Assembly (NCBI GenBank): GCA_963813995.1
Contig: CAWFAZ010000079.1
Location: 23,236 to 87,235 of the forward strand
DNA length: 64,000 nt
Reading direction: 5' to 3'
From: an uncultured Verrucomicrobiae bacterium
Lineage (GTDB): Bacteria; Verrucomicrobiota; Verrucomicrobiia; Limisphaerales; Palsa-1400
Shown: positions 25,606 through 41,282 of the stretch, one piece after another
Position numbering within the stretch: position 1 is the first letter of the stretch
How the letters are laid out: every line of letters begins with the position of its first letter
The notes under the pieces: model-generated
The model's input: only the letters and a program-made list of their open reading frames with translations
Told to the model about the DNA's origin: nothing
Database searches by the model: none
Translations under genes and position numbers: made by a program

Positions 25606-25866
25606 ATGAAGACCATTGAAGCCCAAATCCCGGAGCCGGTGCTCAAACAGGCGCAGGAACTGGCGGCGCGCGAGCACATCCCGCTGGAGCAGATCATCAG
25701 CCTCGCGGGCAGTCAGGCAGTCGGGGTATGGAGCAACGAGAGCTACATCGCCTTGCGCGCCAAACGCGCCAGCCGGGGGAAGTTCCTGGACGCGCTCAAG
25801 GAAGTGCCTGATGTCGAGCCGCCGGATTTCGACCGTCTGCCGGAAGGTTATGAACGAGCAGATTGA
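25606..25866 (+). CDS. Small antitoxin-like protein
   Basis: 86 aa, MKTIEAQIPEPVLKQAQELAAREHIPLEQIISLA.... The size and adjacency to the PIN remnant suggest an antitoxin. The assignment is tentative. Confidence 0.45.
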   Translation: MKTIEAQIPEPVLKQAQELAAREHIPLEQIISLAGSQAVGVWSNESYIALRAKRASRGKFLDALKEVPDVEPPDFDRLPEGYERAD

Positions 25867-26108
25867 TGCCCACGCACGACATCATAGACAATCGCAAGGA
25901 AAAGCTGGTTGACCACATCAATCGCATCCTGTCCTCAACGGAGTCGGCGCGGTTTGCGGTCGGCTATTTTTTTCTGTCCGGGCTGGAGAGCATCGCACGG
26001 CGGCTGGCGGGGGTGGCGGGTTGGGAGGCGGAAATCAACGAGAGGGTGGCCCGGCTCTACGGGCTGACGGCGGAGGAGATCAAAATCGTGGAGGGGGCCA
26101 CGAAATGA
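25866..26108 (+). pseudogene. Chimeric remnant: N-terminus of a PLD-domain helicase-type defence protein fused to a methyltransferase-type C-terminal tail
   Basis: MPTHDIIDNRKEKLVDHINRILSSTESARFAVGYFFLSGLESIARRLAGV is typical of the N-terminus of PLD-helicase restriction-like proteins. It is followed directly by WEAEINERVARLYGLTAEEIKIVEGA, typical of the C-terminus of type IIG/BREX-like methyltransferases. Only 80 aa in total. Confidence 0.5.
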
Positions 26109-27133
26109 AGCCGGAACCCAAATCCGAGATCATTCTCTACCAAACGGAGGACAACCAGACGCGCATCGAAGTGCGCCTGGAGAACGAGACGGTCTGGCTG
26201 ACGCAGAAGCTCATGGCGGAGCTTTTCCAGAAGGATGTCCGCACCATCAACGAACACATCCAGAATATTTTCGAGGAGCGCGAGTTGTCGCCGGATTCAG
26301 TTATCCGGGAATACCGGATAACTGCCGCGGACGGCAAGTCCTATGAAACGCGGCACTATAATCTCGACGTGGTCATTGCCGTCGGCTACCGGGTCAAATC
26401 CCTGCGCGGCACACAGTTCCGTATTTGGGCCACGCAACGGTTGCGGGAATACATTGTCAAGGGTTTCACGCTGGATGACGAGCGGTTGAAGCAGGGCGGG
26501 ACCAAAAGCGAGTATTACGATGAACTGCTCCAGCGCATCCGGGAAATCCGGCTGTCGGAACGGAACTTCCACCGCAAAATATGCGACATCTACCAGACCA
26601 GCATTGATTACGATCCAAGCGCCGAACTGACGCAGTTGTTCTTTCAGACCGTGCAAAACAAAATGCACTGGGCCGCGCATGGACAGACTGCGGCGGAAGT
26701 GATTCACAAACGGGCCAACGCCATGAAGCCGCACATGGGGCTGACCTCGTGGAAAGGGGCAAAGGTGCGAAAGCCGGATGTGGCCATCGCAAAAAATTAT
26801 TTGCAAGAGGAGGAGTTGAAGAAATTGAGCCTGATCGTGACGCAATATCTGGATTTTGCCGAGTTGCAGGCGATGGAGCGCCGTCCGATGACGATGCGCG
26901 ACTGGATTGCGAAACTGGACGCCTTTCTGCGCGCCGGCGACCGTGAAATCCTGGAACACGCGGGGAGCATTTCCGCCGAGGAGGCGAAGCGGAAGGCGGA
27001 ACAGGAGTTCGAGACATTTGACCGGCAACGCCGCCTTCTGGATGACGCCAGGGCCGACGCGCAATTTGCGCAAGAAGTCGAAAGCCTGGCGAAGAAAGCA
27101 AAGCTGCTCAAACCGCCAAAGCGGAAGAAATGA
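26105..27133 (+). CDS. RhuM-family virulence/DNA-binding protein
   Basis: ATG at 26105 (ATGA overlap). EIILYQTEDNQTRIEVRLENETVWLTQKLMAELFQKDVRTINEHIQNIF...YNLDVVIAVGYRVKSLRGTQFRIWATQRLREYIVKGF matches the RhuM family. Confidence 0.85.
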   Translation: MKPEPKSEIILYQTEDNQTRIEVRLENETVWLTQKLMAELFQKDVRTINEHIQNIFEERELSPDSVIREYRITAADGKSYETRHYNLDVVIAVGYRVKSLRGTQFRIWATQRLREYIVKGFTLDDERLKQGGTKSEYYDELLQRIREIRLSERNFHRKICDIYQTSIDYDPSAELTQLFFQTVQNKMHWAAHGQTAAEVIHKRANAMKPHMGLTSWKGAKVRKPDVAIAKNYLQEEELKKLSLIVTQYLDFAELQAMERRPMTMRDWIAKLDAFLRAGDREILEHAGSISAEEAKRKAEQEFETFDRQRRLLDDARADAQFAQEVESLAKKAKLLKPPKRKK

Positions 27134-27140
27134 AAACGAA

Positions 27141-27377
27141 ATGCCCACTCACGACATCATAGACAACCGCAAGGAAAAGCTGGTCTGCCACATCAACCGG
27201 ATTCTGTCGTCCACGGAGTCGGCACGGTTTGCGGTGGGTTGTTTTTTCCTTTCCGGGCTGGAGAGCATCGCGAAGCGGCTGGCGGGCGTGAAGGAGTTGC
27301 GGCTGCTCTCTCCTGAGAAGAATTGCGGACAGGATGAACTCTCTTCCAAACATGCAATGCCCTGTCCATCTTGTTAA
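27141..27377 (+). pseudogene. Second truncated copy of the PLD-helicase N-terminus
   Basis: MPTHDIIDNRKEKLVCHINRILSSTESARFAVGCFFLSGLESIAKRLAGVKELRLL then unrelated residues and a stop. It is a diverged direct repeat of 25866-26012. Confidence 0.55.
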
Positions 27378-29075: not shown

Positions 29076-29152
29076 GCGAGCGTAGCTCAGCCTGGTAGAG
29101 CATCACGTTGCCAACGTGAGTGTCGAGGGTTCGAATCCCTTCGCTCGCTCCA
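29076..29152 (+). tRNA. tRNA-Gly (GCC), canonical, CCA encoded
   Basis: gcgagcgTAGCTCAGCCTGGTAGAGCatcacgtTGCCAAcgtgagtgtcgaGGGTTCGAATCCCttcgctcgcTCCA. It has a standard D-loop GG and a standard TTCGAAT T-loop. Confidence 0.95.
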
Positions 29153-29284
29153 TCTCCATCAACGGCCCCGTCTTTCGACGGGAATTCGTCCAAGACAACC
29201 GCAATTCTTCCGCCATCATCCGAGGCGAAATAATTTTTTGAAATATTTCTTGCATGTAACCGATGGCTTGTGCTATCGTCTTAC

Positions 29285-29517
29285 AAGTTCGATGAAAACT
29301 TGCTTGAACATATCAGCCACGAGTTGGCCGACGATGACGGTCGCAAAAGCGACACGTCATAGCCGGATTACCCGGGGCTATGTGTTTAGCCTTGGACTAT
29401 CCCTGGCGCCAATCGGGCAACGGCCCGAAGGTAATTCGGATAGACCCGGTGTAAGCAGGTAACGAATCGAAAGAGAATTTCTTCACCCTGCTTACCGCGT
29501 GTAAGCAGGGTTTTTTA
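29285..29517 (+). ncRNA. Structured leader or small RNA with mutually exclusive terminator/antiterminator
   Basis: A possible promoter (ttgcat-18 nt-tatcgt) lies near 29252-29281. Several local hairpins are present, for example atgacg-gtcgcaaaagcgac-a-cgtcat. An identical 11-mer gtgtaagcagg occurs at 29449-29459 and 29499-29509, and both copies can pair with cctgcttac at 29487-29495. Family unknown. Confidence 0.4.
29486..29517 (+). terminator. Rho-independent terminator
   Basis: ccctgcttac-cgcgt-gtaagcaggg followed by tttttt. Confidence 0.75.
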
Positions 29518-29520
29518 TTT

Positions 29521-29863
29521 TCCCTGTATAACTGAGACGAGAATGGCGGATAACGAAAGATGAACAGTCTGTGAACAAGAATAGCGCGACATCCAGGTGA
29601 TGTCTTCTGGCGACAAACTGAATTTGGCGAGGACGAGCAGAGAAGCCTCACCGGTGGGGTCTGCCCACAGCCGGAAGACAGAGCCGCCAGGACGATCCAG
29701 ACGAATTTTGCATTTACATTTTAAGGGCTTCGCAGGAGGTGTGCCCCCAAACACCGAAACAGCCGCCGTGAAACCGCGGGTTGGTATCGCAAGATAGCAA
29801 GAGGTGTTTGTTCTTTGTTGAAATGGCATGGGCCGGAAGCGTGGCAACGCTTCCGGCCCTTTT
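29521..29863 (+). ncRNA. Second non-coding stretch ending in a strong hairpin-T tract. Function unknown.
   Basis: There is no credible ORF on either strand. It ends with a 12-bp GC-rich hairpin plus tttt. I could not match it to SRP, 6S, tmRNA or RNase P. Confidence 0.3.
29830..29863 (+). terminator. Rho-independent terminator-like hairpin 7 nt upstream of the first tRNA-like unit
   Basis: gggccggaagcg-tggcaa-cgcttccggccc followed by tttt. Confidence 0.7.
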
Positions 29864-29869
29864 ACTTTC

Positions 29870-29943
29870 GCGGCTGTGATTTAACAGCAGAATGCCTCCC
29901 TGCCAGGGAGGACGCCCGGGCGCAACCCCCGGCAGCCGCACCA
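29870..29943 (+). tRNA. tRNA-like unit 1, anticodon GCC (Gly), non-canonical T-loop CGCAACC
   Basis: Acceptor gcggctg/cagccgc; 3-bp D stem att/aat with loop taacagcag; anticodon arm cctcc-cuGCCag-ggagg (GCC at 29902-29904); T arm ccggg-cgcaacc-cccgg; A73; CCA encoded. Confidence 0.7.
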
Positions 29944-29952
29944 ATTCTTGAC

Positions 29953-30024
29953 AGGCTGCGCGTCAGCATGCGGCAGAGTTTCCAAAACTCAGCCCACTCC
30001 GGGTGGCACGGAGGCAGCCTGCCA
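29953..30024 (+). tRNA. tRNA-like unit 2, anticodon CCA (Trp), T-loop GGUGGCA
   Basis: Acceptor aggctgc/gcagcct (A1-U72) with G73, as in bacterial tRNA-Trp; anticodon loop ttCCAaa (29982-29984) on a 4-bp stem; T arm ctccg-ggtggca-cggag; CCA encoded. Confidence 0.6.
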
Positions 30025-30033
30025 ATTTTTTAC

Positions 30034-30108
30034 GGGGTCGTGGCAGACAAGCAATGCACTTGCCCTGCAAGCAAGCCGATGTGGGAGCGTTACCCACCGA
30101 CTCCACCA
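30034..30108 (+). tRNA. tRNA-like unit 3, anticodon UGC (Ala), T-loop AGCGUUA, C33
   Basis: Acceptor ggggtcg/cgactcc containing G3-U70 (30036/30102) plus A73, the Ala identity set; anticodon arm cttgc-ccUGCaa-gcaag (30066-30068); T arm gtggg-agcgtta-cccac; CCA encoded. Confidence 0.7.
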
Positions 30109-30114
30109 TTTCAC

Positions 30115-30187
30115 TGCGGGGAGAATGAGATTCAGGCGAGCCTCATAAGCTCAGCCTTCGTGGGTGCAACTCCCGCCCCCGCTACCA
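30115..30187 (+). tRNA. tRNA-like unit 4, anticodon CAU (Met/Ile2), weakest fold
   Basis: Anticodon loop ctCATaa (30144-30146); T arm gtggg-tgcaact-cccgc; acceptor tgcgggg/ccccgct with a U1-U72 mismatch; unusual D arm gaat-gag-attc; A73 and CCA. Confidence 0.4.
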
Positions 30188-30203
30188 ATTTAAGGTTCAA
30201 AAT

Positions 30204-30279
30204 GCTGCCGTGGCCGAACACATGAGGCATCCGTCTTCTAAACGGAACGATGCAGGTGGAATTCCTGCCGGCAGTGCCA
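30204..30279 (+). tRNA. tRNA-like unit 5, anticodon UCU (Arg), T-loop UGGAAUU
   Basis: Acceptor gctgccg/cggcagt; D stem gcc/ggc; anticodon arm tccgt-ctTCTaa-acgga (30237-30239); T arm gcagg-tggaatt-cctgc; G73; CCA. Confidence 0.7.
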
Positions 30280-30280
30280 T

Positions 30281-30354
30281 TGCCAGGTGGTGTCAAAGTA
30301 GCACGGCGGCCTGTTAAGCCGCTTGTCTTGGTGCGAGTCCAAGTCTGGCAGCCA
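30281..30354 (+). tRNA. tRNA-like unit 6, anticodon GUU (Asn), T-loop UGCGAGU
   Basis: Acceptor tgccagg/tctggca (U1-A72) with G73, as in E. coli tRNA-Asn; D stem gtg/cac; anticodon arm gcggc-ctGTTaa-gccgc (30313-30315); T arm cttgg-tgcgagt-ccaag; CCA. Confidence 0.7.
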
Positions 30355-30361
30355 ATTTCAC

Positions 30362-30452
30362 GGAAGGCAGGCAGATACAAGCTGGCTGCACCTGTCCCGA
30401 AAACAGGATCGGCTCAAACCCGAGGTCGGAGCGTTACCGACGCCTTCCGCCA
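30362..30452 (+). tRNA. tRNA-like unit 7, class II, anticodon CGA (Ser), T-loop AGCGUUA, C33
   Basis: Acceptor ggaaggc/gccttcc; 4-bp D stem gcag/ctgc; anticodon arm cctgt-ccCGAaa-acagg (30398-30400); long variable arm tcgg-ctcaaac-ccga (30409-30423); T arm gtcgg-agcgtta-ccgac; G73; CCA. Confidence 0.7.
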
Positions 30453-30481
30453 ATTCCAAACCCATAACGAAAGGAAACCCC

Positions 30482-30637
30482 ATGAAATCCATTGTTCGCC
30501 ATCAAAGCCAGTTGCTCTTTCGCAAGAGCTACAAACCAAAGCGTGCCATTCGAATCCGGCCGCTGCCGCGGCTGAATATTGTGTTCCGCCCCGTGAACCG
30601 GTTTGGCGTGAAGCCGCAATTGACAATCGTCTCGTAG
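30482..30637 (+). CDS. Possible small, very basic protein (51 aa) inside the tRNA-like array
   Basis: aaaggaaacccc ATG (Shine-Dalgarno-like). MKSIVRHQSQLLFRKSYKPKRAIRIRPLPRLNIVFRPVNRFGVKPQLTIVS. Its last three sense codons and stop (tag at 30635-30637) overlap the first 10 nt of unit 8 (30628-30637). No family recognised. Confidence 0.3.
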   Translation: MKSIVRHQSQLLFRKSYKPKRAIRIRPLPRLNIVFRPVNRFGVKPQLTIVS

Positions 30638-30698
30638 CTCAAGAGCAGAGCGCCCGGCTGATAACCGGAAGACCGCGGAGCGTTACCGCGCGGGACGA
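30628..30698 (+). tRNA. tRNA-like unit 8, anticodon GAU (Ile), canonical-looking D arm, T-loop AGCGUUA, no CCA
   Basis: Acceptor cgtctcg/cgggacg; ta-gctc-aagagca-gagc; anticodon loop ctGATaa (30660-30662); T arm cgcgg-agcgtta-ccgcg; A73 followed by tcc. Confidence 0.65.
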
Positions 30699-30739
30699 TC
30701 CGTCTTCGCTCTCCGAGCTTCGGCTCGGCGAGCCAAATT
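30699..30739 (+). repeat. Conserved ~40-nt motif, copy 1 (also at 32098-32138 and 33487-33527)
   Basis: tccgtcttcgctctccgagcttcggctcggcgagccaaatt. It can form gctc-t-ccgagc-ttcg-gctcgg-c-gagc. It follows directly after a tRNA-like 3' end. Confidence 0.7.
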
Positions 30740-30814
30740 CCCCGGGTAGCTGAGGCAGATTAGCGCCTCCCTGAAGAGGAGGAGACGTTGGCGCGATACC
30801 AACCCCGGGGGCCA
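30740..30814 (+). tRNA. tRNA-like unit 9, anticodon GAA (Phe), T-loop CGCGAUA
   Basis: Acceptor ccccggg/cccgggg; ta-gctg-aggcagat-tagc; anticodon arm cctcc-ctGAAga-ggagg (30773-30775); T arm gttgg-cgcgata-ccaac; G73; CCA. Confidence 0.7.
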
Positions 30815-30818
30815 TTTT

Positions 30819-31256
30819 AAATGCAGAGTTTGGAGTGGGGAGTGTAGAATGCTTAATCCGGCGGATTCCGACGGGCGGTGTTGATCGAAGAAACGGCGAT
30901 GGCGACCAACTCATTGGCCTCTCGCAGCAACGCTCCAGCCTGATGGAGCGTGGTTTTGTCGGAGTCAATCAACAATTCCATCCAAAAGGCGGACTCGTCG
31001 GCTTCTTCCAGAACCAAACCCATTTTGGCAATGAAGTCGGCTTTTGATCTTGCGCGGCAAACCGCCCGATAATTGGCGCCAACCGACGTGCCGGAACGCA
31101 ACAATTGCCGACCCAACGTTTTGCAAGTTTCCGTGGTCGGAAGGCATTCGACAAAGCGAATCACGTCCAGTGCGAATTGCCGTGTCCGATTCTGAAGGTC
31201 TTGGTGTTTCATAATAATTTCGGCATTCTGCACTTTGCACTTATAACTCTCAACTT
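30819..31256. repeat. Long imperfect inverted repeat (about 34-nt arms) enclosing the four-helix-bundle ORF: an IVS-like stem
   Basis: Left arm aaatgcagagtttggagtggggagtgtagaatgc (30819-30852) pairs with right arm gcattctgcactttgcacttataactctcaactt (31223-31256), about 27 of 34 positions including G-U pairs. Confidence 0.75.
30853..31212 (-). CDS. Four-helix-bundle protein (23S rRNA intervening-sequence protein family)
   Basis: MKHQDLQNRTRQFALDVIRFVECLP...GRQLLRSGTSVGANYRAVCRARSKADFIAKMGLVLEEADESAFWMELL is the hallmark of the family. The ORF could start at 31233. Confidence 0.85.
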   Translation of the reverse strand: MKHQDLQNRTRQFALDVIRFVECLPTTETCKTLGRQLLRSGTSVGANYRAVCRARSKADFIAKMGLVLEEADESAFWMELLIDSDKTTLHQAGALLREANELVAIAVSSINTARRNPPD

Positions 31257-31262
31257 CTTCCC

Positions 31263-31340
31263 GCTCTCAAAGTGTAATCAGATCTGCACGCCGCCCTGCG
31301 AAGGCGGAGGTTCGTGGTGCAAATCCACGTGAGAGCGCCA
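31263..31340 (+). tRNA. tRNA-like unit 10, anticodon GCG (Arg), T-loop UGCAAAU
   Basis: Acceptor gctctca/tgagagc; D stem gtg/cac; anticodon arm ccgcc-ctGCGaa-ggcgg (31298-31300); T arm cgtgg-tgcaaat-ccacg; G73; CCA. Confidence 0.7.
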
Positions 31341-31345
31341 CTTTT

Positions 31346-31442
31346 AAGTGCAGAGTGCTGAGTGCAAAATGCAGAGTGAAGAGTGGAAGGACGCGAACAT
31401 GCCGCTTTTCACTCTGCACTTTGAATTCACAACTTTGCACTT
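31346..31442. repeat. Empty copy of the purine/pyrimidine long hairpin (no ORF inside)
   Basis: aagtgcagagtgctgagtgcaaaatgcagagtgaagag ... cttttcactctgcactttgaattcacaactttgcactt. It uses the same sequence vocabulary as the arms around the four-helix ORF. Confidence 0.7.
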
Positions 31443-31449
31443 TTGCAAT

Positions 31450-31524
31450 GGTGATCATGATGTAACAGCAGCATCACGCCCCGTGACGGCGTTTGTGCCG
31501 GTGCAAATCCGGTTGGTCACCCCA
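31450..31524 (+). tRNA. tRNA-like unit 11, anticodon GUG (His) with G-1 and C73, T-loop UGCAAAU, C33
   Basis: g(-1) at 31450; acceptor gtgatca/tggtcac; D stem atg/cat with loop taacagcag; anticodon arm acgcc-ccGTGac-ggcgt (31483-31485); T arm gccgg-tgcaaat-ccggt; C73; CCA. Confidence 0.7.
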
Positions 31525-31536
31525 ATTCCTCATGGA

Positions 31537-31611
31537 ATCCCGTTGGCCGAGCAGCGCAGGCGGCGGTCTGCAGAACCGCAAAGGCTGGTGCAACTCCAGC
31601 ACGGGATTCCA
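31537..31611 (+). tRNA. tRNA-like unit 12, anticodon GCA (Cys) with U73, T-loop UGCAACU
   Basis: Acceptor atcccgt/acgggat; D stem gcc/ggc; anticodon arm gcggt-ctGCAga-accgc (31570-31572); T arm gctgg-tgcaact-ccagc; discriminator U (the Cys identity element); CCA. Confidence 0.7.
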
Positions 31612-31634
31612 ATTTCGCCGAACCAGCCGGAGGA

Positions 31635-32054
31635 TCACGAGTCGCCCATCACCGTGACCGCAATCGTGCGCCGGCGCGGTTTGATGTCGCACTCAAGATG
31701 AAAGATTTGCTGCCATGTGCCCAGCACGGGTTTGCGATCTTTGACTGGCACCGTGAGCGAAGGGCCCAGCATCGTCGCCTGCAAATGCGAATGGCCGTTG
31801 CCATCATGCCAGGCGTGTTCGTGGCCGTAGTCCCGACTGGGCGGAAACAGCTTGTCCAATATATTGGGCAGGTCTTCCTGAAGACCCGGCTCGAATTCAA
31901 TGGTGCCAATCGCGGCGGTGCTGCCGACGTTGAAAATATGCACAACGCCGGACCGCACGCCTGATGCGTTCACGATCCGGGCCACCTCGTCGGTGAGGTC
32001 GTGCATCTCTTTGTGTCCGGTGGTTTGAACCTGGATTTCTCGTTGATAGGTCAT
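31635..32054 (-). CDS. YjbQ-family (secondary thiamine-phosphate synthase-like) protein, antisense to the array
   Basis: ATG at 32054. MTYQREIQVQTTGHKEMHDLTDEVARIV...GVVHIFNVGSTAAIGTIEFEPGLQEDL...HEHAWHDGNGHSHLQATMLGPSLTVPV matches the YjbQ/UPF0047 pattern. Confidence 0.85.
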   Translation of the reverse strand: MTYQREIQVQTTGHKEMHDLTDEVARIVNASGVRSGVVHIFNVGSTAAIGTIEFEPGLQEDLPNILDKLFPPSRDYGHEHAWHDGNGHSHLQATMLGPSLTVPVKDRKPVLGTWQQIFHLECDIKPRRRTIAVTVMGDS

Positions 32055-32097
32055 GCCGTTGTTTATACCGAAGCTGCCGTCCAAGCGAGGTTTTCCC

Positions 32098-32138
32098 TCC
32101 AGCCTTCGCTCTGCGAGCTGCGGCTCGGCGAGCCATTT
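32098..32138 (+). repeat. Conserved ~40-nt motif, copy 2
   Basis: tccagccttcgctctgcgagctgcggctcggcgagccatttt. Confidence 0.7.
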
Positions 32139-32144
32139 TCCGCG

Positions 32145-32212
32145 ACGCGAATACCGGTGCCGGCCAGGGTTTCACAGACCTGGCTGCGGCGGTTCAACTC
32201 CGCCTTCGTGTC
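32145..32212 (+). tRNA. tRNA-like unit 13, anticodon CAC (Val). The only unit with a canonical T-loop (UUCAACU). No CCA.
   Basis: Acceptor acgcgaa/ttcgtgt, extendable to an 11-bp helix across 32141-32215; short D arm ccg-gtgc-cgg; anticodon loop ttCACag (32173-32175); T arm ggcgg-ttcaact-ccgcc. Confidence 0.5.
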
Positions 32213-32218
32213 GCGTCC

Positions 32219-32295
32219 GGGTTGCAAGCATTGCAGTGATGCAGCCCCGAACGCTTTCGGGGCAGAGCACGGTGCGAATCCGTGGCAACTCACCA
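32219..32295 (+). tRNA. tRNA-like unit 14, anticodon arm aberrant (6-bp stem with 8-nt loop AACGCUUU, or longer stem), T-loop UGCGAAU
   Basis: Acceptor gggttgc/gcaactc; D stem gca/tgc; T arm cacgg-tgcgaat-ccgtg; A73; CCA. The anticodon arm gccccg-aacgcttt-cggggc cannot form a 7-nt loop. Confidence 0.5.
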
Positions 32296-32300
32296 ATTTC

Positions 32301-32400
32301 AAGTGAAGAGTTGAGAGTGACGAATGCAGAATGGAGAGGATGAGAGGTTATCGCGTGCCAGCCGGTTTTTCATTCTGCATTCCGCACTCTGCACTTCTTC
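32301..32400. repeat. Empty copy of the long purine/pyrimidine hairpin
   Basis: aagtgaagagttgagagtgacgaatgcagaatgga ... ttcattctgcattccgcactctgcacttcttc. Confidence 0.7.
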
Positions 32401-32402
32401 CG

Positions 32403-32479
32403 GCTCCCGTAGCTCAAATTATCAGAGTGCGACGCTTCGAACGTCGCGGTTGCAGGTGAGAGTCCTGCCGGGAGTGCCA
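32403..32479 (+). tRNA. tRNA-like unit 15, anticodon UCG (Arg), T-loop UGAGAGU
   Basis: Acceptor gctcccg/cgggagt; ta-gctc-aaattatca-gagt; anticodon arm cgacg-ctTCGaa-cgtcg (32437-32439); T arm gcagg-tgagagt-cctgc; G73; CCA. Confidence 0.7.
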
Positions 32480-32485
32480 ATTCAG

Positions 32486-32562
32486 GCCGCGTTAGCCCAA
32501 CTACCAGAGGCGCTCCGCTCAGGACGGAGAGGTTGGGGGTGGAACTCCCTCACGCGGCACCA
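32486..32562 (+). tRNA. tRNA-like unit 16, anticodon CAG (Leu) but with a short (class I) variable region, T-loop UGGAACU
   Basis: Acceptor gccgcgt/acgcggc; D stem gcc/ggc; anticodon arm ctccg-ctCAGga-cggag (32520-32522); 5-nt variable region; T arm ggggg-tggaact-ccctc; A73; CCA. Confidence 0.65.
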
Positions 32563-32583
32563 TTTGGCGGCCCTGCGCCGGCA

Positions 32584-32655
32584 GCTCCCGTAGCCCAAGG
32601 CAGAGGCGACGGGCTTAAACCCCGTGCAGTGTCAGTGCAAATCTGACCGGGAGCA
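32584..32655 (+). tRNA. tRNA-like unit 17, anticodon UAA (Leu), class I-like, T-loop UGCAAAU, 3' CCG instead of CCA
   Basis: Acceptor gctcccg/cgggagc; ta-gcc-caaggcaga-ggc; anticodon arm acggg-ctTAAac-cccgt (32616-32618); T arm gtcag-tgcaaat-ctgac; A73 followed by ccg. Confidence 0.65.
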
Positions 32656-32663
32656 CCGCTTTC

Positions 32664-32738
32664 GCCCGTGTAGCCCAAGGCAGAGGCCCGAAGCTCAAAC
32701 CTTCGACAGTGCAGGCGCAAGTCCTGCCACGGGCACCA
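32664..32738 (+). tRNA. tRNA-like unit 18, anticodon CAA (Leu), class I-like, T-loop CGCAAGU
   Basis: Acceptor gcccgtg/cacgggc; D arm identical to unit 17; anticodon arm cgaag-ctCAAac-cttcg (32696-32698); T arm gcagg-cgcaagt-cctgc; A73; CCA. Confidence 0.65.
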
Positions 32739-32742
32739 TTTT

Positions 32743-32834
32743 GGAATGTCAACCGGACGAGCGAGCCGGGCCTGTTTGCTAAACAGCGCGCTCCTGGAAA
32801 CGGGAGTGTGGCGCAAGTCCACGGCATTCCGCCA
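32743..32834 (+). tRNA. tRNA-like unit 19, class II, anticodon GCU (Ser), T-loop CGCAAGU
   Basis: Acceptor ggaatgt/gcattcc; 4-bp D stem ccgg/ccgg; anticodon loop ttGCTaa (32778-32780); long variable arm ctcc-tggaaacg-ggag; T arm tgtgg-cgcaagt-ccacg; G73; CCA. Confidence 0.65.
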
Positions 32835-32839
32835 TTTTC

Positions 32840-32931
32840 GCGCGCGTAGCTCAAAGAGAGCCGGCGGCCTTATACCCCGCATCGCACTGGATCAGTGCCG
32901 GGTTCCGGAGCGTTACCGGACGCGCGCACCA
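32840..32931 (+). tRNA. tRNA-like unit 20, class II with 9-nt anticodon loop CCUUAUACC (identity unclear), T-loop AGCGUUA
   Basis: Acceptor gcgcgcg/cgcgcgc; ta-gctc-aaaga-gagc; anticodon stem gcgg/ccgc with loop 32868-32876; 6-bp variable arm gcactg-gat-cagtgc (32884-32898); T arm tccgg-agcgtta-ccgga; A73; CCA. Confidence 0.5.
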
Positions 32932-32936
32932 CTTCC

Positions 32937-33014
32937 GTCCCTGTGGTGTAGTCCAGCCAGCACGCCTGCCTCTCATGCAGGAGATCACCGGAGCAAAGCC
33001 GGTCAGGGACGCCA
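32937..33014 (+). tRNA. tRNA-like unit 21, anticodon CUC (Glu), T-loop AGCAAAG
   Basis: Acceptor gtccctg/cagggac; D stem gtg/cac with loop tagtccagccag; anticodon arm cctgc-ctCTCat-gcagg (32972-32974); T arm accgg-agcaaag-ccggt; G73; CCA. Confidence 0.7.
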
Positions 33015-33020
33015 CTTTTC

Positions 33021-33094
33021 GGCCTGCAAGCATTAAAGTGATGCAACGGTCTTTTAAGCCGTTGAACGGGGAGCGTTACCCCGGCGGGCCACCA
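33021..33094 (+). tRNA. tRNA-like unit 22, anticodon UUU (Lys), T-loop AGCGUUA
   Basis: Acceptor ggcctgc/gcgggcc; D stem gca/tgc; anticodon arm acggt-ctTTTaa-gccgt (33053-33055); T arm cgggg-agcgtta-ccccg; A73; CCA. Confidence 0.7.
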
Positions 33095-33097
33095 GTT

Positions 33098-33343
33098 TTA
33101 AGCAGAGTTTTCGCCAAGGCTCATTGCTGTATTCGACACGGGCATTTCGCCGTAATGGAATCCGGTTTCGTCTTCATAACCAATCGGCACGAGATGATTG
33201 ATGGCCGTGTGCCATATAACCGCGATGCGAGTCCAACTTCCCGGCCGCGCGGCTGGAACGATCAGACCGTCGCCGTTAGACGAGGACACCCATTCGGCTG
33301 GAACGCCTCCATCTGTATGACTGATAGTTGTCATGCTCCACAT
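33098..33343 (-). CDS. Hypothetical small protein antisense to the array
   Basis: 81-aa ORF (MWSMTTISHTDGGVPAEWVSSSNGDGLIVPAARPGSW...). No recognisable family and weak translation signals. Confidence 0.3.
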   Translation of the reverse strand: MWSMTTISHTDGGVPAEWVSSSNGDGLIVPAARPGSWTRIAVIWHTAINHLVPIGYEDETGFHYGEMPVSNTAMSLGENSA

Positions 33344-33414
33344 ATATCGGCTGAAACCAACGCGAGCTTACCATTTTTGTCAATTGATGAGCAATTTTTG
33401 ACCATCCTTTCGGG

Positions 33415-33489
33415 TGCCTCGTGGCATAATCAGGAGCGCGCCGGTCTCTGACACCGGAGAACCTGGAGCAAAACCAGGCGGGGCAGCCA
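33415..33489 (+). tRNA. tRNA-like unit 23, anticodon CUG (Gln) with U1-A72 and G73, T-loop AGCAAAA
   Basis: Acceptor tgcctcg/cggggca; anticodon arm ccggt-ctCTGac-accgg (33448-33450); T arm cctgg-agcaaaa-ccagg; G73; CCA. The D stem is poorly defined. Confidence 0.6.
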
Positions 33490-33527
33490 GCCTTCGCCTC
33501 GCGGCTGCGGCTCGGCAAGCCAATTTC
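33487..33527 (+). repeat. Conserved ~40-nt motif, copy 3
   Basis: ccagccttcgcctcgcggctgcggctcggcaagccaatttcc. It overlaps the CCA of unit 23. Confidence 0.7.
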
Positions 33528-33566
33528 CCATCGTGCGCAGACACCAACAAAGAACAAACACCGGAA

Positions 33567-33652
33567 GAAAGTGCGGAATGCAGAGTGCAGAGTGGAAAGT
33601 GCGTCATGGAACGCGGCGCTCGTCTTCATTCTGCACTCCGCATTCCAAACTC
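33567..33652. repeat. Empty copy of the long purine/pyrimidine hairpin, just upstream of the HNH gene
   Basis: gaaagtgcggaatgcagagtgcagagtggaaag ... cttcattctgcactccgcattccaaactc. Confidence 0.7.
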
Positions 33653-33664
33653 TTGACTGAATTT

Positions 33665-34249
33665 ATGAACGACATACTGAACAAGTCGATGGTGCTGGTG
33701 CTGAACCGTAACTGGCAGGCCGTCAACGTCCGCACGCCACAGGAGGCCTTCTGCATGATGGCGACGAACGTGGCGACCGGCCTGGAAATCGAAGGCGAAA
33801 ACCACATCCGTCCCGTGATCTGGAACGAGTGGATCACTCTGCCCATTCGTCCGCAGGACAATGCGGTGCGAACCGTCCGCGGCCCGATTCGTGTGCCCAC
33901 GGTGATCGTGGCGGTGAATTACGCCAGGGTGCCGAAGAAGCGCCCGAAGCTGTGCGCCCGCGCCATTCGCGAGCGCGATAGCAACCGCTGTCAATACACC
34001 GGCCGCGTGCTGCGCCAGGGCGAGGGCAGCATTGACCACGTTGTGCCTCGTTCGCGCGGCGGCAAGAACGCTTGGGAGAATCTGGTTTGGGCCGGCAAAG
34101 ACGTAAACGCGCGCAAGGGCAACCGACTGCCACACGAGGCCGGCTTGAAGCTGCTCTCGGTGCCGCGCGCGCCGAAGGAACTGCCGGCGACGGCGATCAT
34201 TCGCAACGCTCACGGAATTCCTGAATGGAAACTGTTTGTGCAGCACTGA
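33665..34249 (+). CDS. HNH endonuclease
   Basis: ATG at 33665. MNDILNKSMVLVLNRNWQAVNV... and RCQYTG...IDHVVPRSRGGKNAWENLVWAGKDVNARKGN form the HNH motif. A GC hairpin (34252-34282) follows the stop. Confidence 0.85.
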   Translation: MNDILNKSMVLVLNRNWQAVNVRTPQEAFCMMATNVATGLEIEGENHIRPVIWNEWITLPIRPQDNAVRTVRGPIRVPTVIVAVNYARVPKKRPKLCARAIRERDSNRCQYTGRVLRQGEGSIDHVVPRSRGGKNAWENLVWAGKDVNARKGNRLPHEAGLKLLSVPRAPKELPATAIIRNAHGIPEWKLFVQH

Positions 34250-34723
34250 AGACTGTTGGGCCGCCTGCCTGTGGCGGCCCAACAATTGAAATCAAGAAGC
34301 GTGTCTTTGGCTCTTGGCTCCGCTCCAATACCGTTAAATGTGGTTCATTTTCATTACGGCCCGTCTGTTCATCTTCCTCAGCTTCCAACTCCGCCTCGCG
34401 GCGGCGCTGTCGAGGCCGTGTTCCGTCGTGAACAACCTGATTCGACGAGTGGGACTTTCACCCGCGTTGCAATCAACTTCACTGGCGCAACCTCACCATT
34501 TCTTGGCAATTCTTTGCCTTAAATTGCGCGATATCATGGAGTTGAGGCTCAAACCGACCACTTTTTCATTTTTAGTGACTTTTATTTAATTTTCGGTTGA
34601 CTTGTTTTGGCATATCGGCATAAACAGGGCATGTATCAGGAGAAGCCCGATTTTCTCAATGGTGCTCTTCCTGCCAACTGTTCGCGAATTAGTGGTCCGT
34701 TAAAAATAAAGAAAAAGATTACT

Positions 34724-37700
34724 ATGAGAGCAACACTTTTCTGCCGGGTTCTGACGTTTGCAATGATACCTGCCATGACCCAAGTGACGGCATTGGCCAA
34801 CCCTTTGGGCGGCGCGGTTGTTTCGGGGAGTGCCGCCATTGGCTATTCCAGCACCGCTGTCAACATCAACCAGAACAGCGCTCGGGCTATAATTGACTGG
34901 GCTTCTTTTAATATTGCTGCTGGCGAAAGCACATCCTTTCATTTTTTAGGTCGGAGCGGGGCCAACAGCGCTGTTCTCAACGAGGTCAGCGCCAGTGCCG
35001 GGCAGTCATTTATAAACGGCCTGCTCAACTCTTATGTCGGCGCCGGAAACAGCAAAATTGGCGGCAGTGTTTATGTGCTCAACCCCAATGGCATTCTCTT
35101 TGGCTCGCAAGGCTCGGTCAATGTTGGAAGTTTCGTTGGAACAACGCTTTCCATTGACAATCACTCTTTTATGGCGGGGGGAAACCTCACCTTGGGCAGC
35201 GCGAATTTGAGCGGCGATTCAACGGCGGCCATTCAGAATCAGGGACAGATTAATGCGCTTGGCGGGGACATATTCCTGGTCGCTCAACAAGTTGAAAATG
35301 ATGGCAGTCTCAGCGCCAACCATGTGGGGTTGGCCGCCGGTTCATACGTGCAACTCAATCAGGCGGGGCTTCCTGGCGGGCAACACATTTCGATCCTCGC
35401 GGGCAATCCATCAACTCCCGCCGCCACCGGCGTCGTGAATTCCGGCACTATTCAGGCGGTCACAGCCGAGTTGAAGGCGGCGGGCGGCAATATCTATGCC
35501 CTGGCCATTAACAACTCCGGCGTGGTCCGGGCCAACACCCTGACCGGCCAGGGCGGCCACATTTACTTGACTGCCAATGGCGGAAATATTCAAAACTCTG
35601 GAACTCTGTCGGCTTCCGGCGTCTCGGGCAAGGGCGGGTCCGTCATCGTCACTGGCGGCAACATTACTTTGGCTGGCGGCAGCGTGGTGAATGTCAGTGG
35701 CCAGACTGGCGGGGGCACGGCCCTGATCGGCGGTGGCCCTCACGGCACCGACCCGTCCGTGCAAGACGCCCGGCAAACCACCGTGGCGGCGGGCGCCAAC
35801 ATTATTGCCGATGCCGTGACAGATGGCAACGGCGGCAAAGTGGTCGTCTGGTCGGACGACACCAGTTTTGCCGGTGCCATCAGTGCTCGCGGCGGCGCGA
35901 ATGGCGGCAACGGCGGATCAGTCGAAGTTTCCGGCCACTACCTGTCCTTTACTGGTTCGGTCAATACGCTGGCGCCGCATGGCAAAGCTGGAACTCTTCT
36001 CCTCGATCCAGATGACCTGATCATTAACAACGCTGACAATAACAGTGGTCCTGTCCCCCCCCCTACGACGTTTGAGCCCAGTGGCCTCGCTTCGACGATT
36101 TCTTGGAGCACCATCACTGGCCCTGGCGGTCTGGGTTCGGGCAACGTTACGGTCACCACTACGGCATTCACGGGGCCGGATAACGGTGACCCGGGGAACG
36201 GGACGATCACGGTCGGCGCCGCATCCTCCGGTTTGGCCACCAGCGCCGGCCATAATCTGACGATTAATGCTGCTAACAATCTGATCGTCAACTTCGCTAT
36301 TAACGATACTGGAACAGGGAATTTGACCCTGCAAAGTGGCGGGGCTGTAAGTCTTAATGCGACCGTGACGGGCAGCACCGTGACGCTCAATGGCGCTGTC
36401 ACAGGCTCCAGCCTGTTGACTGCCACGACTCTGAATTTGCAGGGCAGCGGCGCTGTTGGGGCGACTGGCGCGGGCAACGCGCTCAACACCACTGTCAGCG
36501 ACATCGTGCTGGGCAAGAGTGGCGGCAATAGTTTTATCAATCAAACCGCAGGTACGCCGGTGGACATTGGCGGGACGACCGGCGGCGGCAACCTGACTTT
36601 GACATCCGGGGCGGCAACGGTGGATGGGGTGGCCAACCTGACCGCCACCGGCGGGACGGTGACGTTTGTCAACAGCGGAGCGTTGACCGGGAGCGGGCTT
36701 GTGACGGCGGCCACGTTGAATCTGGACGGCAGCGCCAATGTGGGCGCGACCGGGGCTGGCAACGCGCTGAACACGACGGTGGGCACCATCAGCCTGGGTG
36801 AGACAGCTTCGGCCAACAACTGGATCAACCAGAATGCGGCCACACCCGTGGACATTGGCGGGACGACCGATGGCGGCAACCTGACTTTGACATCCGGGGC
36901 GGCCACGGTGGATGGGGTGGCCAACCTGACCGCGACCGGCGGGACGGTGACGTTTGTCAACAGCGGGGCGTTGACCGGGAGCGGGCTTGTGACGGCGGCT
37001 ACGTTGAATCTGGACGGCAGCGCCAATGTGGGCGCAACCGGGGCCGGCAACGCGCTGAACACGCAAGTGAGTACCATCAGCCTGGGTGAGACAGCTTCGG
37101 CCAACAACTGGATCAGCCAGAATGCGGCCACGGCAGTGGACATTGGCGGGACGACCGATGGCGGCAACCTGACTTTGACATCCGGGGCGGCCACGGTGGA
37201 TGGGGCGGCGAATCTGACCGCGACCGGCGGGACAGTGACGTTTGTCAACAGCGGGGCGTTGACCGGGAGCGGGCTTGTGACGGCGGCTACGTTGAATCTG
37301 GACGGCAGCGCCAATGTGGGCGCAACCGGGGCCGGCAACGCGCTGAACACGCAAGTGAGTACCATCAGCCTGGGTGAGACAGCTTCGGCCAACAACTGGA
37401 TCAGCCAGAATGCGGCCACGGCAGTGGACATTGGCGGGACGACCGATGGCGGCAACCTGACTTTGACATCCGGGGCGGCCACGGTGGATGGGGCGGCGAA
37501 TCTGACCGCGACCGGCGGGACAGTGACGTTTGTCAACAGCGGGGCGTTGACCGGGAGCGGGCTTGTGACGGCGGCTACGTTGAATCTGGACGGCAGCGCC
37601 AACGTGGGCGCGACCGGGGCCGGCAACGCGCTGAACACGACGGTGGGCACCATCAGCCTGGGTGAGACAGCTTCGGCCAACAACTGGATCAGCCAGAATG

Positions 37701-41250: not shown

Positions 41251-41282
41251 AGTAAACGACCCATGCTCACTAAAATAGGAAT

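Follow-up and report, generated by a model that had tools for sequence, protein, structure and literature searches.

Long tRNA arrays (L-arrays), also named tRNA array units (Tran et al., 2016, PMC4758250), are defined as groups of at least 20 tRNA genes, present at a density of at least 2 per kb on the same strand and with short spacing (PMC4758250, PMC8421152). These arrays contain up to 43 genes, are horizontally spread and supernumerary, and have been described in several phyla, including Verrucomicrobia, in linkage with an HNH gene (all8564) and often with rtcB (Santamaria-Gomez et al., 2021, PMC8421152), the latter being found among the array neighbours in cyanobacteria (PMC8421152). The array of Anabaena is silent until translation is impaired by translation inhibitors, and 23 of its 26 tRNAs are then charged (PMC8421152). 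The locus analyzed here lies in a 64-kb stretch of DNA from an uncultured Verrucomicrobiae bacterium (contig CAWFAZ010000079.1; this whole stretch is referred to as the window) and consists of 23 cloverleaf units, all on the + strand between positions 29870 and 33489, followed by a gene encoding an HNH endonuclease. Judged by its sequence, this locus is a chromosomal L-array, a Verrucomicrobial member of the known family, in which nucleotides U55 and G18 of the tRNA elbow have been replaced, in most units, by G55 and A18. The systematic swap of these two near-universal nucleotides, together with its recurrence in phages, is the surprising part; the array is otherwise an ordinary L-array.

The array and its tRNA units

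All coordinates given below are those of the window, and L-numbers designate the relative loci and contigs used for comparison. The 23 units occupy 3.62 kb (6.4 per kb) on a single strand and are linked to an all8564-type HNH gene, as in the definition of L-arrays. The initial annotation had folded them by hand as consecutive + strand cloverleaves, and Rfam, ARAGORN, a cloverleaf scanner and a hand parse confirmed this. The stems found were those of tRNA, with a 7-bp acceptor stem, a 3-4-bp D stem, a 5-bp anticodon stem, a 5-bp T stem and a 7-nt anticodon loop. The units, and the canonical tRNA gene that precedes them, are the following:

29076-29152 (+), canonical housekeeping tRNA-Gly GCC; TTCGAAT T-loop, GG in the D-loop, U73 (Rfam 67.7 bits, ARAGORN)
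29870-29943 (+), unit 1, tRNA-Gly GCC; A73, CCA, T-loop CGCAACC, D-loop AACAGCA (Rfam 48.6 bits, ARAGORN -ps80, scanner)
29953-30024 (+), unit 2, Trp CCA; A1-U72, G73, CCA, T-loop GGTGGCA, weak D-arm (hand parse)
30034-30108 (+), unit 3, tRNA-Ala UGC; G3-U70, A73, T-loop AGCGTTA (ARAGORN, Rfam, scanner)
30115-30187 (+), unit 4, Met CAU; U.U mismatch at 1:72, T-loop TGCAACT, orthologues in L010 and L002 (ARAGORN -ps80)
30204-30279 (+), unit 5, tRNA-Arg UCU; T-loop TGGAATT (G56) (ARAGORN, Rfam, scanner)
30281-30354 (+), unit 6, tRNA-Asn GUU; U1-A72, G73; A18, G19 and G55 in the Rfam alignment (ARAGORN, Rfam, scanner)
30362-30452 (+), unit 7, tRNA-Ser CGA; long variable arm, G73, T-loop AGCGTTA (ARAGORN -ps80, scanner)
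30628-30698 (+), unit 8, tRNA-Ile GAU; A73, no encoded CCA (ARAGORN, Rfam, scanner)
30740-30814 (+), unit 9, tRNA-Phe GAA; T-loop CGCGATA (ARAGORN, permissive Rfam, scanner)
31263-31340 (+), unit 10, tRNA-Arg GCG (Rfam 54.3 bits)
31450-31524 (+), unit 11, tRNA-His GUG; G-1, C73 (Rfam, ARAGORN -ps80, scanner)
31537-31611 (+), unit 12, tRNA-Cys GCA; U73, covariation in 10 orthologues (ARAGORN, Rfam)
32146-32212 (+), unit 13, D-armless tRNA-like element (orthologue alignment, RNAalifold; Rfam tRNA-Sec 25 bits)
32219-32295 (+), unit 14, tRNA-like; anticodon arm formed by an 8-bp stem with a CGCT tetraloop (ARAGORN '???')
32403-32479 (+), unit 15, tRNA-Arg UCG; T-loop TGAGAGT (A56), D-loop AAATTATCA (U19) (ARAGORN, Rfam, scanner)
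32486-32562 (+), unit 16, tRNA-Leu CAG; short variable arm, A73 (ARAGORN, Rfam, scanner)
32584-32655 (+), unit 17, tRNA-Leu UAA; short variable arm, CCG replacing CCA (ARAGORN, Rfam, scanner)
32664-32738 (+), unit 18, tRNA-Leu CAA; short variable arm (ARAGORN, Rfam, scanner)
32743-32834 (+), unit 19, tRNA-Ser GCU; long variable arm, G73 (ARAGORN -ps80, hand parse)
32840-32931 (+), unit 20, 92-nt tRNA with anticodon UAU; long variable-arm hairpin, A73 (ARAGORN default)
32937-33014 (+), unit 21, tRNA-Glu CUC (ARAGORN, Rfam, scanner)
33021-33094 (+), unit 22, tRNA-Lys UUU; A8:U14, A18, A54:U58, G55 (ARAGORN, scanner)
33415-33489 (+), unit 23, tRNA-Gln CUG; U1-A72, G73 (Rfam, ARAGORN -ps80, scanner)

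The Rfam model RF00005 matched 15 array units over its full length (model positions 1-71) with 41-54 bits, at or above the gathering score; 14 of these matches came from the gathering scan of the whole window, and that of Phe (30740-30811, 46.6 bits) from the permissive scan only. ARAGORN called 13 array units and the canonical tRNA-Gly(GCC) under default settings, and 20 units with -ps80, the gains being Gly 29870, Met 30115, Ser-CGA 30362, His 31451, Ser-GCU 32743, Gln 33415 and the unreadable unit at 32219. The Trp unit at 29953-30024 was called by neither program and folds by hand with its weak D-arm. The scanner scored the four stems only and ignored the loop sequence; at a cut-off score of at least 18 it returned 17 array units and the canonical Gly from both strands of the 64 kb, with no further match on either strand of the window and none in 30 shuffles of the array region. 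In total, 19 units could be parsed by this loop-agnostic scanner, and units 2, 13 and 14 deviate from the standard cloverleaf.

The sequence parse also confirmed N73 followed by CCA in 20 of the 23 units, the encoded CCA being absent from Ile GAU, unit 13 and Leu UAA; among 156 array-type units of related loci, 144 encode it. The trailer that had been described as rich in att took the form N-T-T-T in 144 related units, with T at positions 2, 3 and 4 in 72%, 66% and 63%, respectively. Identity elements for the synthetases track the anticodon in the window, as had been claimed, and hold across orthologues (U73 in 10/10 Cys units, A73 in 12/12 Lys units, C1-G72 and A73 in Pro). The Gly unit, with A73 where the bacterial norm is U73, is an exception to this rule. 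Fifteen amino acids are represented in the window array, and 34 different anticodons across the related arrays. The set appears to be supernumerary: the canonical tRNA-Gly GCC adjoins unit 1, which is likewise Gly GCC, and canonical Lys and Gly genes lie upstream of the L012 array, which itself holds Lys UUU and Gly GCC.

Comparison with described L-arrays

The protein encoded by the HNH gene (33665-34249) was 43% identical over 87 residues (BLASTP, E = 2e-21) to the HNH protein located beside the trn operon of the Nostoc plasmid pCC7120delta, and this homology makes the locus a Verrucomicrobial L-array. Some tRNAs are alike too. The Leu D-arm GCC-CAA..GCAGA-GGC (GCC-CAAUUGGCAGA-GGC) and the short variable arm are common to the window and Nostoc, the D-arm being found also in L053, and the Val UAC acceptor stem AGCCC.../...GGGCU is shared with Nostoc; shared ancestry is read here from sequence likeness. 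A tRNA-Leu with a short variable arm can be a substrate of LeuRS, at least in Streptomyces (PMC6614811). Therefore the initial view of the array as a stand-alone oddity had to be corrected, since it belongs to a known class of HNH-linked long tRNA arrays, which it resembles in its more than 20 dense same-strand tRNAs, its apparently supernumerary character, its embedded small open reading frames (ORFs), its homologous HNH and, in some loci, its RtcB neighbour.

Several differences were also found. The tRNAs of the Nostoc and L053 arrays have canonical TTCRA T-loops and GG D-loops, whereas 155 of 156 units in the Verrucomicrobial arrays carry G55 and most are devoid of G18. The possibility that the Nostoc trn operon shared the odd loops was considered and rejected, its T-loops being canonical except for that of its Ile GAU unit (GGCAGTA). 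The HNH gene lies downstream of the array in the window and upstream in the described L-arrays. Moreover, the Verrucomicrobial loci contain elements undescribed in the L-array paper: a leader with two terminators, an 18-bp bracketing repeat, heptad-repeat hairpins and UNCG hairpins ending in CCA (see below).

L053 itself, from a metagenome-assembled genome (MAG) of Phycisphaeraceae, contains a 38-tRNA array around an HNH homologue of 35% identity, with canonical T- and D-loops and no encoded CCA. One of its units has the anticodon UCA and was called SeC by ARAGORN.

A remodelled tRNA elbow

Few nucleotides in biology are as conserved as U55 (pseudouridine 55) and G18. When the RF00005 matches were aligned to the model, the stems of the array units were clean and the scoring penalty was located at these two positions, with consensus mismatches at 55 (G for U) and 18 (A for G). 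The earlier remark that the D- and T-loops break tRNA rules and that finders may under-call the units was thus correct, with 13 of the 23 called by default ARAGORN and 15 of the 23 by RF00005. The odd loops had been attributed to this array; they are real, but they also occur throughout the Verrucomicrobial arrays and in many viral tRNA clusters.

A census of the elbow was carried out on the 156 array-type units, which come from 16 loci. G55 was present in 155 of them and a purine at position 57 (R57) in all. Position 56 was C in 134, A in 13 and G in 9 units, while the pair 54:58 was U:A in 93, A:U in 26, C:A in 17 and G:G in 13, and the pair 8:14 was U:A in 110 and A:U in 17. The D-loop GG was found in 23 units and missing from 133. 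The near-universal set of G18, G19, U54, U55 and C56 was therefore not the one present, U54 itself occurring in 93 units.

The changes were coordinated. Among 132 units with C56, A18-G19 was found in 99 and G19 in 123, and in 18 units with A56 or G56 the dinucleotide at 18-19 was A-U or A-C in 10. A Watson-Crick partner of position 56 was present in 12 of these 18, where a fixed G19 would fit only 3. On this sequence evidence the 19:56 pair is kept by covariation, and 18:55, 54:58 and 8:14 also co-vary. The canonical tRNAs located beside the arrays (Gly in the window, Lys and Gly in L012, Arg in L023) keep UUCRA and GG, which indicated that the change of the elbow is specific to the arrays and not genome-wide.

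A precedent for the new loop exists outside tRNA. T-loops of other RNAs have the consensus YGNRA and receive, between positions 4 and 5 of the loop, an intercalating partner that is nearly always adenosine (bioRxiv 10.1101/2022.12.26.521914). The YGNRA pattern was found in 110 of the 156 array units (the 93 with U:A and the 17 with C:A at 54:58), the rest being A..U or G..G variants, and the array T-loops UGCAA-AU, CGCGA-UA and GGCAG-CA match the (YGNRA)NY riboswitch consensus and the GGAAG variant of rRNA. The simplest reading of these sequences would be that A18 takes the part of the intercalating adenosine while 19:56 keeps the outer corner of the L. The T-loops of rRNA and of the FMN and cobalamin riboswitches have the same loop sequences, including the GG..G variant, and their receptor adenosine corresponds to A18. 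They dock riboswitch or rRNA helices, whereas in the arrays the motif replaces the tRNA's own UUCRA T-loop and 19:56 is kept.

tRNA-Pyl and animal mitochondrial tRNAs have lost the G18G19/T-psi-C signature and yet function in translation (PMC1851642, PMC4394434). Those cases are single specialised tRNAs or reflect relaxed constraint, whereas the array is a multi-amino-acid set with a full-size elbow and a specific, co-varying replacement. Literature searches on G55, G18, U55 and Verrucomicrobial tRNA arrays, whose coverage was incomplete, returned no account of the G55/A18 variant. We know of no structure of a G55/A18 tRNA.

Related arrays and selection on structure

Same-strand arrays were found directly upstream of HNH orthologues in L002, L005-L008, L010-L012, L014, L017, L018, L023 and L024, which represent at least 12 Verrucomicrobial genomes. 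The order is partly conserved: Ala ... Arg-UCU, Asn, Ser-CGA, Ile, Phe, Arg-GCG, His, Cys ... Arg-UCG, Leu units, the UAU unit, Glu, Lys, Gln, HNH. By BLAST, the window and its closest relative, L006, have only the leader, the array and HNH in common, and their flanks differ. L012 shares the upstream ubiE and canonical tRNA-Gly as well, despite an HNH of only 72% identity, and this synteny suggested that the module has long been resident in the lineage while its content turns over.

The Cys-GCA family (10 orthologues) was used to analyze the stems. Ninety-seven percent of the cells in its alignment were paired, and 14 of the 20 pairs had changed on both sides, which none of 500 shuffles reached; slid registers gave 27-41% pairing. 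The other isoacceptor families had two-sided changes in 1-17 of 20 pairs, and in at least 8 pairs in 19 of 22 families, counts that were taken from a scanner that itself requires stems. Many units are 88-98% identical between loci in which the DNA of HNH is only about 80% identical. The anticodon loops are of 7 nt, and a purine at position 37 (R37) was present in 155 of 155 units. The loss of pairing and lack of compensatory change between relatives expected of decaying pseudogenes were not what was observed; the lack of compensatory change had been named beforehand as one outcome that would refute the original claim. From their sequences, then, the units are tRNAs maintained by selection on secondary and tertiary structure. 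The proposal that they are chargeable tRNAs and not random hairpins stood as far as selection on structure and on the identity elements is concerned, but it did not extend to units 13, 14 and 20, which are not ordinary decoders.

In L005 the array is flanked by genes for Ro60 and RtcB (L005 828-2591 and 12177-13700). The tRNA cluster of phage Tomas (L087) contains genes for a Ro-like protein, an HNH protein and a nucleotidyltransferase. These neighbourhoods suggest a recurring link of tRNA arrays with genes of RNA repair or quality control.

Viral and phage relatives

The same elbow was found in viruses. The window Lys-UUU unit has the D-loop TAAAGTG and the T-loop AGCGTTA; the corresponding loops are TAAGGTG and ATCGTTA in the closest tRNA from an isolated phage, that of Xanthomonas phage X1. 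A pattern scan of IMG/VR for Lys tRNA, in which either purine was allowed at 18 and G or T at 55, returned 67 contigs, and their Lys tRNAs were A18/G55 in 42 cases and G18/U55 in 25, with no mixed combination (Fisher p = 6e-19). In the viral loci, 89 of 476 cloverleafs were of the G55 type; the D-loop GG was present in 8 of these 89 vs 365 of the 377 with U55 (p = 1.6e-67). Most viral clusters contained 1-4 tRNAs of the G55 type, and L128 reached 16 out of 18. In the viral contig L150, Leu, Ser and Lys tRNAs of the G55 type precede AACTAAAGAACAAACACC and then an HNH gene of 45% identity, which is the order of the window.

Among isolated phages, the closest matches to the array were the tRNAs of Xanthomonas phage X1 and of Streptomyces phages, and unit 17 (Leu UAA) was 80-83% identical to the tRNA-Leu genes with a short variable arm of the latter. 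The tRNA clusters of X1, the Tomas group and IMG/VR resemble the arrays in their dense runs of tRNAs with small ORFs, HNH and Ro-like genes, and some of their members are direct homologues of array units (Lys UUU, the short-variable-arm Leu UAA), a minority being A18/G55. They differ from the window array in that the latter lies among chromosomal housekeeping genes and nearly all its units have G55.

Units that depart from ordinary tRNAs

Unit 13 had been read as Val CAC, but this reading was rejected: the D-arm is missing and the invariant loop letters TCACA are carried on an extended stem. An assignment to tRNA-Sec was also discarded, as the match reached 25 bits vs a gathering score of 47 and no long variable arm was present. 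The acceptor-like stem of the element comprises 11 bp and includes an invariant G.U at 3:70, UCACA is invariant in the extended arm, CCA is absent, and the T-loop (TTCAACT) is the only canonical one of the array. A G.U pair at 3:70 is the identity pair for alanine. Seven aligned orthologues gave 58 invariant columns, with an identity of 88-94% in five of six orthologous loci and 78% in the sixth, L011; its invariant 27-mer did not occur in the viral contigs. Unit 14 has orthologues in L010 and L011 that are ordinary Lys CUU tRNAs, and by sequence it is a Lys-CUU orthologue with a replaced anticodon arm. In unit 20, the UAU anticodon, the variable-arm hairpin (GCACU-NGAUN-AGUGC) and A73 are kept in six loci, and a C31-to-G31 change in L011 restores pairing. 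The Trp unit, unit 2, has orthologues in L006 (88% identity) and L013 (76%).

U33 is replaced by C33 or another base in 27 of 155 array units of the 16 Verrucomicrobial loci, for example in Ser CGA, His GUG, Val UAC and Leu GAG. The Met CAU units of related loci have a 1:72 mismatch, as initiator tRNAs do.

Leader, bracketing repeat and other accessory elements

Several candidate regulatory and processing elements, together with embedded genes, were identified in and around the array:

29283-29522 (+), leader segment 1, candidate structured RNA of about 240 nt with an intrinsic terminator at 29485-29520
29700-29869 (+), leader segment 2, with a second intrinsic terminator at 29830-29868 that abuts tRNA 1
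29803-29820 (+), 5' arm of the bracketing inverted repeat, 18 nt, GGTGTTTGTTCTTTGTTG, perfect complement of 33545-33562
33545-33562 (+), 3' arm of the bracketing inverted repeat, CAACAAAGAACAAACACC, about 100 nt upstream of the HNH start
30482-30637 (+), very basic ORF of 51 aa (MKSIVRHQSQLLFRK...) after tRNA-Ser CGA
30853-31233 (-), ORF of a four-helix-bundle protein, '23S rRNA intervening sequence protein' family (PF05635, TIGR02436)
31635-32084 (-), embedded YjbQ/UPF0047 gene, by family match
30704-30744 (+), minihelix-like hairpin ending in CCA, UUCG loop, copy 1 of the repeat family
32104-32144 (+), hairpin ending in CCA, UNCG loop, copy 2 of the repeat family
33491-33531 (+), hairpin ending in CCA, UNCG loop, copy 3 of the repeat family
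30812-31262 (+), hairpin element H1, with heptad-repeat arms (30812-30855 and 31218-31262) that enclose the four-helix-bundle ORF
31346-31442 (+), heptad-repeat hairpin H2, with (GCAGAGT)n arms
32302-32396 (+), heptad-repeat hairpin H3, from the repeat search and arm duplex energy
33568-33658 (+), heptad-repeat hairpin H4, directly upstream of the HNH start codon

The non-coding leader of 650 nt (29225-29870) is 70-88% identical in four other loci (L006, L002, L012 and L010). A promoter-like sequence that precedes it, TTGCAT-N18-TATCGT with an extended -10, was read by eye and was not called by the promoter scan; the same sigma-70 scan returned no significant sites inside the array. Leader segment 1 had a folding z-score of -8.1 and no Rfam match, and its covariation, with five sequences, was not significant. 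Leader segment 2 is nearly invariant across the loci (AAGGGCTTCGCAGGAGGTGTGCCCC.AAACACCGAAAC...), and its AAACACC can pair locally with GGTGTTT of the bracket arm; together with its terminator it may form an attenuator or a riboswitch-like switch. A permissive Rfam search of the leader and the hairpins returned only miRNA, PyrG-leader and group II intron fragments far under their gathering scores.

The two arms of the bracketing repeat would form a duplex of -29.2 kcal/mol. Both were found in L002, L006, L010 and L012, with matched G-to-A and C-to-T changes on the two arms in L012, and the single changes in L002 and L006 correspond to G.U pairs on the plus-strand RNA. The 3' arm was always placed 50-110 nt upstream of HNH, in more than 12 loci, array-less ones (L009, L027) included, and also in the viral L150. 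A processing helix like that of rRNA would be compatible with these observations, and so would a DNA site for HNH.

The UNCG hairpins ending in CCA have 10-11 bp and a terminal GCCA followed by a U-rich trailer. Three copies are present in the window array and others recur in nine further loci, usually starting right after the CCA of a tRNA; in sequence they resemble acceptor/T-arm minihelices. The (GCAGAGT)n pattern, with arms of 7-nt periodicity, matched 16 times in the window, 15 of them within the array, where 1.5 were expected; the four long hairpins of the window are confined to the array, and heptad-repeat hairpins were also found inside the arrays of L002, L005, L010 and L011. The arm duplex of H1 reached -39.4 kcal/mol vs -18.3 +/- 4.0 in the controls. 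Since H1 encloses the four-helix-bundle ORF, these hairpins were likened to the intervening sequences of rRNA, and they could represent elements of that type or MITE-like ones.

The four-helix-bundle gene, the YjbQ gene and an 81-aa ORF are private to the window array in comparison with the related arrays. The 51-aa ORF, by tblastn, has counterparts in L006 (92% identity and a second copy), L002 (72%) and L013 (54%), and domain and family searches returned no family match for it.

The HNH gene and its genomic surroundings

The gene downstream of the array is placed as follows:

33665-34249 (+), HNH endonuclease gene, 194 aa (Pfam HNH_4, HNH_5)

Its product has more than 5500 homologues, the top matches being 80-92% identical. 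An exact look-up of the protein returned no record, and NCBIfam and PDB gave generic HNH similarity only (Cas9/IscB-like). The homologue scan, with one genome per species, comprised 80 loci. Nearly all loci above 50% identity belonged to MAGs of Verrucomicrobiota, the best (91%) to an 'uncultured Verrucomicrobiae' genome, with the exception of short contigs in bins labelled Bifidobacteriaceae (L026) and Acidobacteriaceae (L027). Distant copies (34-43% identity) were found in Planctomycetota, Myxococcota and Acidobacteriota. The first viral relative of HNH (L001, 47% identity) was devoid of tRNAs.

Upstream of the array lie genes for an MlaE/F/D transporter, a PIN protein, RhuM, a UbiE-type methyltransferase, a lipoprotein and the canonical tRNA-Gly; downstream lie HNH, a two-partner secretion system, a type II secretion system (T2SS) ATPase and DnaK. 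These flanking genes are chromosomal, and the gene annotation showed no phage genes within 15 kb on either side of the array. Integration of an island at the tRNA-Gly gene was considered and rejected, as neither an integrase nor a direct repeat of the tRNA 3' end was found and the arrangement is the same in L012.

The region at 44.8-45.3 kb was considered as an array-associated gene because a relative of it lies inside the L006 array, and it was rejected as a fragment of an IS1634 transposase. The IS1634-family fragment extends over 44789-45478 in the window, and the related IS copy within the L006 array is at L006 7553-8770. Two copies of one N-terminal coding segment, about 50 aa long (MPTHDIIDNRKEKLV.HINRILSSTESARFAVG...), flank the RhuM-family gene (26021-27133) at 25863-26108 and about 27140-27377, and look like the product of a gene split or duplicated by an insertion. 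The two-partner secretion locus (34607-43211), directly downstream of HNH, comprises a ShlB/FhaC transporter and a highly repetitive filamentous-haemagglutinin-like ORF that exceeds 1900 aa, in which repeats of about 100 aa are nearly identical to each other. A weak CdiI-like match was found downstream of HNH in L003 and L004, with no consistent linkage established. Between HNH and the haemagglutinin-like gene, positions 34349-34467 (-) gave a weak match to group II intron D1-D4 (29.4 bits vs a gathering score of 49).

Possible function and alternative explanations

On balance we lean towards reading the locus, by sequence and by analogy with Anabaena, as an L-array whose tRNAs have a selected, rebuilt elbow and would serve as a conditionally expressed back-up pool. 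Transcription would start from the promoter about 600 nt upstream of the array and pass through the conserved leader, where the two intrinsic terminators would render read-through conditional. The precursor would then be cut at the heptad-repeat hairpins and, in the manner of RNase III on rRNA precursors, at the bracketing 18-bp helix, and the ends of the tRNAs would be generated by RNase P and by 3' trimming to the encoded CCA. The resulting tRNAs would form a normally silent pool able to keep translation going if the ribosome or the housekeeping set is impaired, as proposed by analogy with the Anabaena trn operon. With neither U55 nor G18, the elbow would be blind to the pseudouridine-55 and Gm18 modifications. 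It is a speculation that enzymes or toxins which recognise or cleave the canonical T-loop also act poorly on tRNAs with an A18/G55 elbow; such resistance would explain the recurrence of this elbow in the tRNA clusters of phages. The CdiA-CT toxin E479 cleaves within the T-loop (PMC9086364), and phage tRNAs and arrays have been proposed to act in counter-defence (PMC10264068, PMC12803027). A broader version of this idea can be put forward tentatively, as a possibility that we hold with clearly less confidence. The A18/G55 elbow would be a second, parallel tRNA architecture, repeatedly selected in mobile or supernumerary sets to evade factors that read the elbow (T-loop toxins or immune tRNases, TruB, TrmH and possibly quality-control nucleases), and the arrays would be a near-complete 'hardened' pool competent for translation, switched on by a novel leader RNA and matured by rRNA-like processing at the bracket and the hairpins.

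Several observations weigh against the back-up pool. No T-loop-directed nuclease was identified in the array genomes. Asp, Thr, Pro, Tyr and a clear Val are not represented in the window array, which by itself therefore cannot support translation, and 3 of its 23 units are aberrant (13, 14 and 20). U33 is present in only 128 of 155 units (83%), and its loss, like A73 in the Gly unit, means that some units may decode or charge poorly. The content of the arrays turns over, with insertions (IS, YjbQ, four-helix-bundle) and with isoacceptors gained or lost between loci. HNH is also found without an array in the Verrucomicrobial L015, L016 and L019-L021 and in most copies from other phyla. The terminator just before tRNA 1 could merely end an upstream small RNA, in which case another promoter would be needed, and none was found by the scan. 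Finally, the stem counts of the families carry the ascertainment bias of the stem-requiring scanner; the Cys test avoids it in part, as its units were called by default ARAGORN or BLAST in most loci, with coordinates taken from the scanner.

The viral relatives raise the question of whether the locus is instead a cassette of phage origin, mainly for counter-defence or conflict and not for host physiology, whose tRNAs would withstand immune or toxin nucleases directed at tRNA, with HNH as a homing endonuclease that spreads it and the 18-bp repeats as DNA ends or targets; we regard this as rather unlikely. In IMG/VR, tRNAs of the G55/A18 type are frequent (89 of 476 cloverleafs, with 16 of 18 in L128), the viral L150 has the same order of tRNA, 18-mer and HNH as the window, the closest tRNAs of isolated phages are those of X1 and Streptomyces phages, and the Tomas cluster adjoins an HNH and a Ro-like gene. 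The window and L006 have different sequences on either side of the array, and both a homing role for HNH (PMC8421152) and an anti-defence role for phage tRNAs and arrays (PMC10264068, PMC12803027) have been considered in the literature. The distribution of the module gives mixed signs of mobility, with HNH present without the array in L015, L016 and L019-L021 and the same module in a viral contig, whereas the ubiE/tRNA-Gly synteny with L012 points the other way and, with an HNH of 72% identity, argues for a long chromosomal residence. Furthermore, no phage or integrase genes surround the array, whose neighbours are Mla, ubiE, tRNA-Gly, two-partner secretion and dnaK genes; HNH is 80-92% identical over hundreds of metagenome proteins, more like a host gene than a fast selfish one; and the changes in single bracket arms are compatible with G.U pairs in a + strand RNA.

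The remaining explanations account for the odd features by loss of function. If the units were tRNA-shaped RNAs employed outside translation, as decoys, scaffolds, primers, regulators or donors of amino acids to non-ribosomal reactions, the elbow would mark their exit from the ribosome, and the loss of U55 and G18, the 17% of units without U33, the non-decoding anticodon arms of units 13 and 14 (the former strongly conserved nonetheless), the interspersed minihelix-like hairpins ending in CCA and the Ro60 and RtcB neighbours in L005 would follow. This is improbable in view of the 7-nt anticodon loops with R37 in 155 of 155 units, the 34 anticodons kept, the charging of the homologous array tRNAs in Anabaena (PMC8421152) and the identity elements, which track the anticodon in every family, as would be expected only if charging and decoding matter. 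Decay of tRNA pseudogenes after an old duplication or transfer, with the odd loops as neutral drift, could account for the lower finder scores, the broken units 2, 13 and 14, the missing isoacceptors and the insertions, but it is very improbable indeed: drift would not give U55-to-G in 155 of 156 units together with a perfect 18:55 and a strong 19:56 covariation, nor compensatory changes in 14 of 20 pairs with 97% pairing, nor units that are 88-98% identical where the DNA of HNH is about 80% identical.

Significance

These results extend the L-array concept to a phylum in which no array had been characterised in detail, and add candidate regulatory and processing elements to it. As default ARAGORN misses about 40% of the units and Rfam about one third, the tRNA complements of Verrucomicrobia and of many viral contigs may be under-counted. 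The G55/A18 tRNAs could be partly orthogonal scaffolds for engineering, and they raise the question of what recognises positions 18 and 55 among enzymes, toxins and contacts in the ribosome, and whether this elbow confers resistance to T-loop nucleases. A natural set of tRNAs with A18/G55, covering 15 amino acids in the window and 34 anticodons across the arrays, would show that an alternative elbow is viable, one that is maintained in abundant soil bacteria and recurs in phages.

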